36,354 nucleotides of DNA from Proteromonas lacertae (GCA_002245135.1 NGBS01000643.1:1-36354); one strand, 5' to 3'. Positions 11,329 to 28,791 are shown, counted from the stretch's first letter. Made by a program: numbers and translations. Notes: generated from the letters alone by a model not told the origin.

Positions 11329-11364
11329 AGGCCCTGCCGAGATTTGAACTCGGATTATTGGATT
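11329..11364 (-). repeat. 3' half of tRNA-Gln (36-bp exact duplicate of 28720-28755)
   Basis: AATCCAATAATCCGAGTTCAAATCTCGGCAGGGCCT on the minus strand, starting immediately after the anticodon position and followed by T-runs. Confidence 0.95.
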
Positions 11365-11430
11365 AAGAAATTATTAAAATTAATTTTAATTAAATCCCTA
11401 CCATTGAATTGAGTAGGACTTGTAAAATCT

Positions 11431-12295
11431 TTATTCATCACCACCACTAACATTCTTTGTAGAATATTTTGAAACTATTTCAAAATCTACGCTAATTATA
11501 TTGTTATTTATATAATCTACTATATTCTTTATTGTTTTAAATCTTATATTGTAGACTTTTATCAACATATCATTAAATATTCTATTCTTGAAATAAATTC
11601 CAGTAGATTCAAACACAATAGGATAAAATTCTACATTAAAATTGTTCTGCTTTAACTCTTCTATTAAACTATTATATTTTTCTCTTTTCAACTTTTCTGT
11701 TAGCTCTACTCCATTAAATTTGTTAGATACATAACTTACTGCTACTTCTATCATAATTACTTTGTTTTCCACTTCATTAAATAACATAATATCAGGACGT
11801 AATAATTTATTTTCTTCTTCACGTATATCTATAATTTTATCCAAAGTTGAATCATACATTTCATAGTAGTTATATTTTGAATATTTAATTAATTTTTTCT
11901 ACTACTACATTGTGACGTTTTGTGTATAGATTTCTCATTGGAAAGCAGTTTTGTAGTATATGTTTATAATTGACACTATCATTATTACATCTTCTACATT
12001 TTCCATAATTTTTCATTATATTACATCTCATTTTATATAATAAACTGAATTGCTTCTCTGAATAATTGTTCTGTAAGATGTATTGATTTGATCTCTTATT
12101 ATTTCTCAAAATTTCTGTTTTAAAATTTTGAGCCATTACATTTATTTCTTCTTCACAATTGTTATTATTATTATTATAATTCTCTGAATTATAAATAGTA
12201 TATAACTCTTTATGTAAGTGTTTCATTATATTTTTCATATTAACATTCTTCATTATATGTGATTTTCCAGCTAAAACTTGATTATCTATTAACAT
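11431..12295 (-). CDS. Retrotransposon C-terminus: CCHC zinc knuckle and restriction-like endonuclease
   Basis: CRRC..HILQNC, KRHN, RPDIMLF..VIMIEVAV, KREKY, YPIVF. Frameshift near 11870. Confidence 0.9.
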
Positions 12296-12357
12296 ACCTT
12301 CGATATTTAATTTGTTAAAACTGTATATACAAAACTGTAATATATTATTTAATTCAC

Positions 12358-14301
12358 TTAATTCTTATTATTTTCTGTAATGATCTTTTTTAAACTATTA
12401 TCATATATAAAATTGTAAAGTAAAATATTATATTCTTTATTATAGTTTTTAACTTCTTCAACATTTTTGACACTCACTGTTTTAACATTCTTTCTCTCTA
12501 ATTCATCATTAATATGAAATTTGAATACCTTCTTTATTAGTTCATATTTAGACTTGGATAATCTATATAAAAGTGTCAATTTGTTAATATAATATTCATT
12601 TTCTAGTGACTCTCCATCTTCGATGTATCCAATTTCTTGACACTTTATTGATATATAATATTTCATTAATTGATGTTTCTTAGTATATAAAAATATTTGG
12701 TAATATATATTTTCTTAAACATATTAACTTCTAAACCGATATAATTTTGAAACTTTAATTTTGTTGATATTTTGTTTTAAATCATCTTCAATATCCATCA
12801 CGTCTTTAACACGCTCATATAAGGCATACTGTTTGTAAAATTTTCCTAAATATTTTAAGTTTACATCTGGATCGTATTTGATTGGGTGATCTTGTATTTT
12901 GATATTGGGATTTTTGTAAAATATGTTTCTTTTACTTCTATATCTAGAATATATTATTGTCTTATCTACATTTATATTTAATCCCATATTATTTAATTCC
13001 TCTGTTAAAATATGTGCCTGTTTCTTTAGATCCATATCACTTTCAGACATTAAGATTATATCATCAGCGTACGCTAATACTTTTACTCTTTCTCCATTTA
13101 AGTTCACTCCATAACTTTCTTTATCAATTCTATCTATTAAATCATTGACACATAAATCAAATATAATTGGCTATAATGGATCACCTTGTCTAACACCACG
13201 ATTTTTATTAATGTATTTGAAATATTCGTTTTTACATTTTATTTTCATTTTTAGGTTTCTAAATATCTTCATTATTACTTCATTATCTTTAATATTCAAC
13301 TTTTTTAATACATGTCCAATATAGTCAACGGGTATGTGATCAAATGCACCTTGAATATCTACAAATAACACATTAAGTTGCTTTAATTCAGTATCATCTT
13401 TATAATTTTGAATGATATTATTCAAGATGAAAATATTCTCTTCACATCCACTTTTTCCATTAATAAATCCGCGTTGACTTTTATTAAGCTTAATTTTATC
13501 ATTCTTTATTAACAATTGCAGATTGTCATTGATATACTTTGTATACATTTTGGATATAATATTTTGGAGTTGAATAGGTCTATAATTATTGATATCATCT
13601 TTTTTCTTATTCTTGTTAATCAATATAATTTTTGAAAGACTCCATTGATATGGGAGTTCTTTAATATATAGAAATCCATTGATCAACTCCACCATTAAAC
13701 TTCGAAGCAAGGAATTTTGTTTATACACTTTTAAAGGTATTCCATCTGGACCATAAGCTCCCTTAATATTCATTATGTTAATTATCCTCTTGAAGTCTCT
13801 TTCTGTAATATTCAAATCCAAATCAATTTCCTCATTCAACTTCAACTCTTCATCAACTTCTTTTATATTAATTTTCTTATCCATGTATAATTCTGATAAC
13901 TCTCTTTCAAAGTAATCAATTGATAGGGTTATGTCATTACTTGTATCATTTAGAATATTTTCCACTGTCGTTTTTTCGTTATATTTGAATTTAATATTAT
14001 CAGGAATTTCTATTACTCCATTCAGTTGAAGCTTATATTTATTCTTCTTAGTAATACTATCTGATAATATTATTTGAATTTTATCTGGATTTTCCTTAAT
14101 TTGATCTTTAATATAGTTTGGTAATTTATTATATTCTTTTGCTTCTATATTATTGATAACTTCTTCAAGATGATTGATTTCATCTGTAATATGCTTTTTA
14201 TAACCATTTGGTAGTTTAGGAATTCTATTCTTATTCTTATTGTTATTGTTATTATAAATTGTATTTAGGAATCTATGTATAATTGGTTTTATATTTTCCA
14301 T
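12358..14301 (-). CDS. Retrotransposon reverse transcriptase domain (one in-frame stop and frameshifts)
   Basis: GPDGI, NYRPIQL, QRGF, DIQGAFDHI, GVRQGDPL*P (TAG at 13171-13173), LAYADD, GLNINVDKT, KYLG. Confidence 0.95.
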
Positions 14302-26169: not shown

Positions 26170-26547
26170 ATGGTTCAAGAAGAAATACCATTTTGGATCA
26201 AAGTTTTTAATAGCATTAGAGAATTAGCATTAAATGGATATACAGAAATTCATTTCTTATATTATTTAGAAGAGAGCATAGCTAATCTAGCAAAGTTAAA
26301 AGCTATACTAGACAAAGTTAAGCATTATTATACTAATCAGTATGCAACGAAAAAAAGATTGGAAATTATCACATATTTAGATAATATTAGAAAAGATGGT
26401 AATAGATTTAAGAAAGAATTAATTGAGAATAATCAATTATTTATTGATAACAAATTAGATTACGCAGTTAATGGATTACTATCTTTATTATGTGATGCTT
26501 TAGCAGCTAGAGTGAAAATGGATGCAGATATCAAAAAAAAGAAGTAA
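26170..26547 (+). CDS. Element C hypothetical helical protein (125 aa)
   Basis: Intact ORF, divergent from 25469..26092 across 77 bp, ending KKKK. Confidence 0.6.
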   Translation: MVQEEIPFWIKVFNSIRELALNGYTEIHFLYYLEESIANLAKLKAILDKVKHYYTNQYATKKRLEIITYLDNIRKDGNRFKKELIENNQLFIDNKLDYAVNGLLSLLCDALAARVKMDADIKKKK

Positions 26548-27155
26548 GTAAATATGAATTTATCTAATTATGATTAAATAATTATATATTTTAAATACTA
26601 ATACAGAGATTAATTAAAATAAAAAGAAGACTGTGTGTTTTTAAGGGTTTATTTAAAATAACATAAAAAATCCATAACCGATTCTTCTTACCCTTTCTTT
26701 TTTTCACTTCCTTACTTAGGGAAAGTGAAGTCGATCACTTTTCTCTAGGTAAATAAGTGAAAAAAAGAAAGGGAAAGGAAAATCGATTATGAAATCCGCA
26801 TTTCAAAAACTAAATGAGTAAAAGAAAAGGGAAAGTGAAAACAAGGGAAAGTGAAAACGAGTCTTAGGTGGTGTATATGGCCTTCCTAAGGTTTATATCA
26901 GTCTCTATAACATAATTGAACAAATGTTTACAACGGACGGCAGTTACACCGTCAGTTACACGTCAGTTATGTAACTGACATGTAACGGATTCATAACGAC
27001 CGTTAAAACCGTTGTACAAATGAACGGTTATTGAATAAAATGAAAAATTCAAAAAATGAAACGGCTATTTTTATTTTAGCCTCGGGTCCAGCGTCAAGCC
27101 TCGTGGTCTAGCGTCAAGCCATTTTGGGTCTGTAGCCCTTAATATATATTATTAT

Positions 27156-28653
27156 TATATGCTACTTCTTTGCCACATCCAGAACACATATATTTGATGA
27201 ATTTACCATTAATCTTATTCTTTGTAGCTTTTGTGATAGTGACTTGAGAAAAGTTTGACTGAATATTAATATTTTCATTATTATTGTTATTATCGTTATT
27301 AATGTTAATGTTATTATCTTCTTTGAATGTTGTTATTTCGTCTTTAGATGCATCAGATTTATTATTAGTATTGTCATTTCTTACTCTTTTCTTGTATGCT
27401 AATAATGTCACTCCTTTCTGAAATTTTGTGGCATCTTCAACTTCTGTGATGACTAATCCATTTATTTTGTAATATTTTCCATCATTTTCATTTTTAACTA
27501 TTATGAAATAATGACCAGACATACCATTACCATCGTATACAATTAATATTTGTAAGAAGTATTCTCTATTATTATAGCTAATTGGATACGTTACAGCACT
27601 GTTCGTAGATGTTCTATTTATTTCTACAACAAAACTGTCACCACATTTATATAAAGAATTTGTTTTCTTTTTGATCCAATAGTTACATCCATTACAATAA
27701 TTTAATTCGTCTAATTCTGTATTGTAAAATTTAAGATCAACTGCTTTACCTGTATTGATGGTGTTATGGATGAATAACATTTTCTTGTGGTAAACACTTT
27801 TAATTCGACATTCATTACATTCCTCATGGTATTCTAAATTTACTTTACATCTTAATTCATTTTCTTCATCCATATCATACAATAGAGTGTTGAAGACATC
27901 TAATGCATCTCCTTCATTGTTGTGACATATTTTTAAATAATCTTTGATTATTTGGATGTTGTTTTCTTCTACCGCCTTTTTGATCATCTGCATGATCTTT
28001 CCATTATTAAGATTCATATAATACAAAGTTTGAGTAGCTGCAGTAATATAACAGCTATTGTTGGGATAATTCATTCCTTTAAAATATACCTTATTTACTC
28101 CACCCAACAATTTAATTATTCTTATATCATCTTTCAACTCACTATGATAGTTATTCACATTTTCTGTTTCTTTGGCTTCTAAATAATTAATTTCTTTGTC
28201 TACAGTGTATATACCATATTCTGAGGGTTTTAATATATTTTTTGAATCTAATTTCAGACATTTAAATATTAAATCGTCTTCTTGGTTTTCGCCATATATA
28301 CTAATCTTGTAGATATTACTAGTATTATTCATATATATTATAAATTTTCTATTATATAAGATATTTGAAATTAGGTTTTGAAATTTGGAATGTTCTATCT
28401 TCCTCTTAGCATTTGTATCTTCATTTTGGCCTATAGAATCACGTTCTGGTATCGGCAAATCTTTTAAGAAAAATTGACTAAATTCTGTAGGATAATCTGT
28501 ATTATGTGTAATAATTTCGGTGTAAGAATTACTTTTATATTTTGTACTATTGATTTGTAGTATTATATCTAGATAACTTGGTTTGTTTTTTGAATATTTG
28601 CCTGATTGACTTTTAGATTTTAATTTTGAGCTGTGGAATGTGTTACCCAGCAT
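27156..28653 (-). CDS. Retrotransposon ORF N-terminus with USP/peptidase C19-like domain
   Basis: Cys box GMNYPNNSCYITAATQTL, EGDALDVF..LL, CNEC/CNGC, His box IVYDGNGMSGHYFIIVK..YYKING. Ends at YMCSGCGKEVAY where element C interrupts it. Confidence 0.85.
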
Positions 28654-28719
28654 AAGACAATTAAAATCTTATATAAAACAAAGCAAAAAAGTCAAAAATA
28701 AATGACTCTAAAAAAATTC

Positions 28720-28791
28720 AGGCCCTGCCGAGATTTGAACTCGGATTATTGGATTCAAAGTCCAATGTGCTAACCATTACACCACAGAGCC
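28720..28791 (-). tRNA. tRNA-Gln (anticodon TTG)
   Basis: GGCTCTG/CAGGGCC acceptor stem, TGGTGTAATGG A-box, TTGGA-CTTTGAA-TCCAA anticodon arm, GTTCAAATC T-loop, T7 terminator downstream. Confidence 0.97.

Follow-up and report, generated by a model that had tools for sequence, protein, structure and literature searches.

How can a retrotransposon settle inside a tRNA gene and leave a complete copy of that gene standing in front of it? What makes site-specific retrotransposons tolerable is the redundancy of their targets, and the question is raised here by a 36,354-nt stretch of Proteromonas lacertae DNA (GCA_002245135.1 NGBS01000643.1:1-36354; the whole of it is called the window), in which a complete tRNA-Gln(TTG) gene and a second copy of its 3' half bracket a full-length, broken non-LTR (long terminal repeat) retrotransposon of the restriction-like endonuclease (RLE) class. 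An earlier note on this DNA had described such an element, inserted in tRNA-Gln and preceded by an intact tRNA, and this holds: a reverse transcriptase (RT), a CCHC zinc knuckle and an RLE are present, and the tRNA is complete. The arrangement would be explained by target-primed insertion with a long target-site duplication (TSD) that restored both the tRNA and its terminator, a reading to which we give an even chance of being correct. The features at the two junctions are as follows.

28720-28791, minus strand: complete tRNA-Gln(TTG), upstream of the element; the duplicated 3' half is 28720-28755 (ARAGORN, Rfam, repeat comparison, fold).
28654-28719, minus strand: 66-nt leader with G-A-A, T7 (28710-28716), further T5 and T6 runs and two hairpins (repeat and shuffle analysis).
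11365-11430, minus strand: 66-nt 3' untranslated region (UTR) without a poly(A) tail, with a weak hairpin, z -1.57 (fold).
11329-11364, minus strand: second tRNA 3' half, 36 bp, exact (repeat comparison).
11283-11328, minus strand: trailer that follows the half gene, rich in T (T-A-A then T5) and unstructured (fold against shuffles).

The tRNA-Gln is the only tRNA that ARAGORN and Rfam find in the window; it matches RF00005 at 71.5 bits over model positions 1-71 of 71 and folds into a cloverleaf. The exact 36-bp repeat (28720-28755 = 11329-11364) spans the base after the anticodon through the discriminator, and the window holds one other exact direct repeat of at least 36 bp, inside a nested insertion. 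The tRNA 5' half occurs a single time in the window (two 18-nt patterns with up to three mismatches, one match each). A 32-nt tRNA pattern found no stretches in viral contigs and none in prokaryote genomes. At its 3' end the element joins the tRNA sequence in the same sense, as tRNA-specific RLE elements do, with ...TTCTT followed by the AA of the tRNA. The earlier note had this end abutting the tRNA directly after the TTG anticodon, which is right for 11364, except that up to two A may be the element's because of the AA, the nick then lying perhaps 0-2 nt further 3'.

The same note gave 11329..28791 as a non-LTR retrotransposon and mentioned no nested DNA. A retrotransposon does lie between the halves, but its open reading frame (ORF) is broken and ~11.5 of the 17.4 kb are two younger nested inverted-repeat insertions, A and B; with two thirds of the span being nested DNA, a 17-kb element was rejected. 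Without the nested DNA the element is ~5.8 kb long (5,813 with provisional boundaries), at 24-26% GC, and is divided as follows.

27156-28653, minus strand: ORF start, with a ~175-aa N-terminus, a cysteine protease of the ubiquitin-specific protease (USP)/UCH type and the first half of a C2H2 finger.
23893-27155, no strand assigned: nested insertion B, 3,263 bp, terminal inverted repeats with 117 of 120 positions matched, 6-bp TSD.
23645-23892, minus strand: middle ORF piece, with the second half of the finger and an Asn-rich linker.
15395-23644, no strand assigned: nested insertion A, ~8.25 kb, 41% GC, long palindromic inverted ends.
14520-15394, minus strand: RNase H domain, then two C2H2 fingers (RVT_3 E 7e-11).
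12727-14421, minus strand: pre-RT region and RT with a YADD motif; in-frame stop at 13171-13173.
11888-12714, minus strand: thumb/linker and CCHC zinc knuckle, spread over two frames.
11431-11898, minus strand: RLE (RPD...E motif) and stop codon (E 5e-24, profile from 12 relatives).

The domain order is thus USP/UCH-type protease, zinc finger, RNase H, two C2H2 fingers, RT, CCHC knuckle and RLE, in what was a single long ORF. The protease domain (~27364-28131) contains a Cys box, NNSCY, and a His box, GHY. The RT pieces match PF00078 (E 1.5e-11 and 5e-12) and are of the non-LTR type, and the CCHC/RLE region is recognised by its motifs, by a BLAST match to the relative P0020 (below) and by the 12-relative profile (E 2.5e-11 and 5e-24). 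Upstream of the RT is an archaeal-type RNase H with two motif stretches missing in this copy. The C2H2 fingers match below the Pfam cut-off. A repeat search of the window found no LTR-sized direct repeat, and no AP endonuclease family was found by Pfam in the 31 window ORFs scanned.

Both ends of the ORF are present, with 66 nt from the discriminator to the element ATG and 66 nt from the element stop codon to the duplicated half, and these equal untranslated ends locate the repeats where a TSD would be expected. The earlier note's T7 terminator and its ATG about 66 nt downstream are both there, the T7 run beginning 3 nt past the discriminator. On the R2 model, a bottom-strand nick at tRNA position 36/37 (or up to 38/39) would prime reverse transcription, and a top-strand nick would fall at or just past the discriminator, within the x-A-A-T5 trailer and 36-44 bp downstream of the first. 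Fill-in of this stagger would duplicate the tRNA 3' half and so place a complete tRNA and a T run in front of the element, the T run being either the duplicated trailer (a 44-bp TSD with one later substitution) or the element's first bases (a 36-bp TSD). Such an insertion would leave the host with a functional tRNA, in a rebuilt gene that would still be a target. Recognition of the tRNA sequence may fall to the C2H2 fingers, and the protease, on the analogy of the NeSL Ulp1 domain, could be a deubiquitinase or a self-processing protease. Two unrelated inverted-repeat elements would later have entered the ORF, while stops and frameshifts built up. The one copy at hand suggests that the element is specific for this target.

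A duplication of this size need not be called unusually long, as it was in the earlier note: R9 has a TSD of 126 bp, R4 of 13 and R8 of 9 (PMC6895275), the stagger of reptile Utopia is 20 bp, and by our own count one 5' junction of LIN15_SM in S6 Fig implies a 41-bp duplication in tRNA-Arg (PMC4640811).

The earlier note had the identity breaking one base past the discriminator, and the 36 bp are indeed exact; beyond the mismatch at +1 (G vs T), however, seven more bases match, 43/44 overall, and with identity resuming after +1 the duplication may end beyond the discriminator. The leader with its ATG is strongly folded (z -4.03, 0 of 200 shuffles as stable), with hairpins at ~28688-28709 and 28651-28673, the second of which covers the ATG, whereas the trailer behind the half gene is unstructured (z +0.92, 167 of 200 shuffles) and is likely the locus's own. 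The leader is structured from +11 and the downstream trailer is not; we therefore count the bases from +11 as element sequence, so that the duplication is 36-44 bp long and the element's 5' end lies between +1 and about +10. A duplication reaching +26 was rejected, with 7 mismatches in 26 vs 0 in 36 in addition to the structured leader.

The likeness of the two trailers was judged against a T-run-matched control of 255 sites in the window; simple shuffle p-values (0.02, 0.0007, 0.02) were set aside because shuffling destroys T runs. Of these sites, 24-39% do as well as the 7/8 match over the first eight trailer bases, a match that thus neither proves a 44-bp TSD nor calls for a donor locus. 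From +9 to +26 the trailers share 12/18, which ~1% of the sites reach, for an interval chosen after looking; from +9 to +30 the likeness is reached by 2-13% of T-run sites and by 8-41% among 49 T-rich sites.

These comparisons bear on an explanation in which the element RNA carries the tRNA (whole or beyond the 3' half) and a trailer at its 5' end, and, once the target is nicked behind the anticodon, its cDNA anneals to the upstream target half and rebuilds the gene, like R2 rRNA or a phage attP. The break in identity exactly after the discriminator suits this explanation, and 19 of the first 26 leader bases match the downstream trailer, as if the leader were a diverged tRNA trailer, a likeness that is weak after the T-run control. 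Pairing of cDNA to the upstream target is the favoured route of R2 second-strand priming, R2 RNA retaining ~28 nt of rRNA for annealing (PMC13580325); target-derived sequence within R2 elements is published for fish, together with a 110-130-bp target replacement (PMC5035012); and an intact U2 gene stands ahead of Utopia copies in Phytophthora (PMC4640811). Identical halves would, however, be given equally by a TSD, and the 7/8 match is too frequent at T runs to need a donor. RNA polymerase III is expected to stop at T runs behind a tRNA, so read-through of the T7, T5 and T6 runs between tRNA and ATG is unlikely, and an element-borne tRNA would need an RNA polymerase II transcript through the tRNA. 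We regard this explanation as unlikely, if a serious candidate. The earlier note had offered a constant GAATTTTTTTAGAG trailer as support for it; such a trailer is also expected under a 36-bp TSD, where it would be the element's 5' UTR.

RNase Z acts in tRNA 3' processing, and a further idea is that a family with USP protease and RNase H targets tRNA-Gln without cost, every insertion restoring tRNA and terminator, with an RNase Z cut of a read-through transcript after the discriminator setting the 5' end of the element RNA at the G and replacing the ribozyme of R2. It draws on two things, the place where identity breaks off and the folding of the leader, and we think it quite improbable.

Of the two mechanisms in the earlier note, a long TSD and an element-borne half, both are live; it did not consider a third, in which the target was a tandem pair of tRNA-Gln genes. 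Insertion behind the second anticodon, with an upstream top-strand cut, would have deleted the 5' half of the second gene and most of the spacer, and the intact tRNA would be a neighbour with its own trailer. The +1 mismatch and the partial trailer likeness would then be those of paralogous spacers. Oomycete Utopia elements in U2 arrays show the same anatomy, intact U2 upstream and 3' fragments downstream, for which Kojima and Jurka prefer deletion and leave duplication open, and NeSL-1_TV removes a few tRNA-Pro bases (PMC4640811); target deletions of 110-130 bp are described for fish R2 (PMC5035012). The flanks, on the other hand, are unique on both sides, the ATG of a BTB gene lying ~154 nt upstream of the tRNA, and with no further tRNA or 5' half in 36 kb this argues against a tRNA array. 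The 66 nt between tRNA and ATG are mostly element-like hairpins and leave almost no room for spacer, and an extra, unobserved gene copy is required. A tandem-pair deletion seems to us rather improbable.

Lastly, the element might not be target-specific at all, having arrived by chance or by a loose preference for the neighbourhood of tRNA genes, with one long duplication. There is a single copy, RLE families with weak or lost specificity exist (PMC4640811, PMC5035012), and the region gathers mobile elements, three further inverted-repeat elements being present in the window. A 72-bp gene is nevertheless a very small target, and both junctions fall at tRNA landmarks, the anticodon and the discriminator/terminator; we think an unspecific insertion quite improbable. 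At a single locus, all four explanations would present the same picture.

Several points weigh against target-primed insertion with a long TSD. It is read from one copy. The mismatch lies exactly one base past the discriminator, where a 44-bp TSD needs a later substitution, and a 36-bp TSD requires that the element begin by chance with terminator-like sequence. The 12/18 trailer likeness is a weak hint of a leader taken from another tRNA-Gln trailer and fits the rivals better. In the RT tree described next, the window RT sits on a long branch, and composition is biased in it and in three of its four neighbours.

Relatives were sought by a HMMER search with the first RT piece, for which at least 150 matches were listed, and 168 proteins entered the comparison set. 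P0020 (1,940 aa, Logan) is an intact relative with protease, RNase H, RT, CCHC and RLE in the same order as in the element. Among the best matches listed, it is matched by five of the nine element pieces tested (protease, RNase H/finger, first RT piece, CCHC and RLE), and it is the sole match of the protease piece among the 168 proteins compared. Its best matches among solved structures are R2 proteins (E 5e-48), with L1 structures also found, and its RNase H has D-E-D-R-D spacing and matches archaeal-type RNase HI structures. P0027, P0174 and P0179 have protease, fingers, RT and RLE and are without RNase H, while P0032 is a 95-aa fragment, 64% identical. Compared with P0020, the window RNase H has no first acidic motif and is short of ~18 residues towards its end, neither gap being a frameshift. 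The three proteins without RNase H and a window copy without two catalytic-residue stretches suggest that the domain is in the process of being lost within the family. In the clusters of the four relatives, contigs reach at most 5.6-6.2 kb and extend little beyond the ORFs, which fits elements bounded by repeats.

The RT tree comprised 62 domains: 51 RT proteins, picked mostly by RLE profile match and with cluster duplicates left out, 10 AP-endonuclease/L1-type outgroups, and the window. In it P0020, P0174, P0027 and P0179 form a group with the window RT at 98/91, a grouping that, from these alignments, we hold with moderate confidence. An exclusive clade of RNase H-bearing RLE proteins (window, P0020, P0192, P0089) was rejected by the approximately unbiased test (p 2e-35, 29-row subset).

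The protease Cys and His boxes are invariant in all six aligned proteins. PF00443 (UCH) is below its cut-off in the window (E 4e-4) and above it in P0174, P0035 and P0050, and the ESM Atlas gives 0.94 to UCH clusters. An AlphaFold model matches USP structures at a TM (template-modelling) score of ~0.4, which is weak support because the model is of low confidence (predicted local distance difference test, pLDDT, 44.7). By its Cys and His boxes and its profile and structure matches we count the domain as a USP (C19) protease domain. P0035, P0050 and P0131, which also combine an RT with a UCH domain, lie in two further branches of the RT tree, so that RLE elements may have acquired a USP-type protease on more than one occasion.

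An early homologue search gave 18 weak matches, 10 of them carrying an AP-endonuclease Pfam family, and none informative. No relatives were confirmed among 129 and 355 candidate stretches in viral contigs. Among 589 from metagenome contigs, 75 were confirmed as RT relatives, with best identities mostly of 24-39%, and none of the 75 matched the USP, RNase H or RLE queries. The tRNA calls of a relaxed ARAGORN run on the metagenome loci were long-intron noise only and were discarded.

RLE elements that target specific sites, including tRNA genes, are established, as the earlier note stated: NeSL-1_TV in tRNA-Pro, LIN15_SM in tRNA-Arg and LIN25_SM in tRNA-Glu all insert in the same sense (PMC4640811). 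For its attribution of tRNA-Arg to YURE no confirmation was found in the portions of that paper covered, which tie YURE to U2-derived satellites and give LIN15_SM for tRNA-Arg. LIN15_SM, a planarian element of the R5/LIN lineage, resembles the present one in its RLE, its same-sense orientation, its 3' junction inside the gene and its long duplication. It differs in entering at the start of the anticodon stem, in an upstream copy that ends in the T-arm/acceptor so that the tRNA is not rebuilt, and in its animal host. NeSL-1_TV (Trichomonas vaginalis) and LIN25_SM are likewise tRNA-gene-specific RLE elements, one of them in a protist. NeSL-1_TV, compared by description and not by RT, inserts in the T-arm, deletes a few target bases and breaks the gene, while LIN25_SM inserts near the tRNA 5' end and has a target other than tRNA-Gln.

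With oomycete Utopia elements the present one has in common a stramenopile host (a probable one here), an archaeal-type RNase H encoded ahead of the RT (PMC4640811), and a target gene that is whole on the upstream side and a 3' fragment on the downstream side. Their target is U2, in arrays, and a USP protease is not reported for them in the portions of that paper covered. In the coordinates of its Phytophthora S2/S3 tables, by our own interpretation and not the authors', an intact U2 gene often follows a Utopia 3' fragment at 400-480 bp and precedes the next element. One Utopia-2_PS copy has U2 positions 1-78 in front of it, from which a 40-bp duplication would follow (PMC4640811). Membership in Utopia was rejected: the only RNA that Rfam finds in the window is the tRNA, not U2, and the RT does not group with P0192 (Phytophthora rubi) or P0089, both treated as Utopia-like by architecture and not by curated label.

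In NeSL-1 and Utopia-1_TSP, both of nematodes, a single ORF likewise places an N-terminal papain-like protease before zinc fingers, RT and RLE. That protease is of the Ulp1-like kind (C48; PMC4640811), unlike the USP/UCH-like domain (PF00443) here, and the two elements target spliced-leader or U2 genes. NeSL membership was rejected on the UCH protease and because the C48-bearing P0047, P0067 and P0182 lie elsewhere in the RT tree. R2 and R9 share the single ORF, C2H2 fingers, RT, CCHC and RLE, and R9 the long duplication; their target is 28S rDNA, and the present element adds a protease and an RNase H. R2 membership was rejected as well, there being no rRNA or ribozyme family at the Rfam gathering score in the window, and a leader of 66 nt that is U-rich. 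The element works like R2, NeSL and Utopia and is outside all three by the features tested.

Dada DNA transposons also insert around anticodons, although 'tRNA-Gln' is absent from the main text of PMC8869645. None of three retroelement terms occurs in PMC10318531, and the portion of PMC12203849 covered adds nothing on this comparison. The literature searched held no tRNA-Gln-specific non-LTR element, no full tRNA restoration and no USP domain in such an element, a weak absence, as most subscription papers, Repbase and the Fell et al. inventory were outside its scope. While tRNA targeting, long duplications and the intact-upstream anatomy are already published, the tRNA-Gln target, full restoration and the USP domain are apparently new.

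The tRNA-targeting RLE junctions compared in the covered portions of PMC4640811 leave the target gene broken. If our reading is true, cuts that bracket the 3' half would make insertion tolerable even in a low-copy tRNA gene, with the target regenerated. The locus gives a defined substrate for asking how RLE proteins set the second-strand cut far from the first, and P0020, should its target be the same, would be a candidate for an enzyme that inserts from an RNA template at a tRNA gene and spares the gene. Beside Ulp1, the class reported for these elements in the literature covered, the USP type is a further protease class, and it occurs in more than one branch of the RT tree.

The 3' part of the retrotransposon is broken by frame changes and stops, one of them within the RT. 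The neighbouring host gene keeps an open 803-aa frame while the element is broken, so the decay is likely real. A non-standard genetic code was rejected, as the standard code reads this host CFAP58 frame without a stop and its product has 98% identity to a Logan protein.

Insertion B splits a zinc finger; one of five boundary calls keeps the frame open and completes the C2H2 finger. It has three ORFs and a 52-nt internal palindrome at 26673-26791. Insertion A sits in a TA run that leaves its exact ends and TSD ambiguous, and two of seven boundary calls keep the frame open. It encodes about eight ORFs of 108-388 aa, two pairs of which seem paralogous by eye, and no transposase or integrase was recognised among them in Pfam and PHROGs scans. 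The insertion ORFs overall have no Pfam or PHROGs match, nor did the one ORF tried in the ESM Atlas. Insertion A and 3566-5510 form one family, with 41% GC and long palindromic inverted ends starting TATATAG; the short copy at 3566-5510 has a clean 6-bp TSD, CATGGA.

A further element of 3.2 kb (8109-11281) begins 47 nt behind the tRNA half. It has TG...CA ends, 112-nt inverted repeats (109 matched) and a 5-bp TSD, ACACT, with an end-like copy at 7949-7994 and fragments of an Ulp1-like protease (PF02902 E 0.007, below cut-off); its ends and domain presumably recall Ginger/TDD transposons. On the other side, 28898-35742 holds the host BTB-domain gene, head-to-head with the tRNA, and the CFAP58/CCDC146-type flagellar gene, whose named best matches are stramenopiles at 43-45% identity, which points to a probable stramenopile host with flagella and AT-rich DNA. 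Positions 1-6404 contain a cluster of host genes of glycosylation type (Galactosyl_T, DUF3431, DUF1647).

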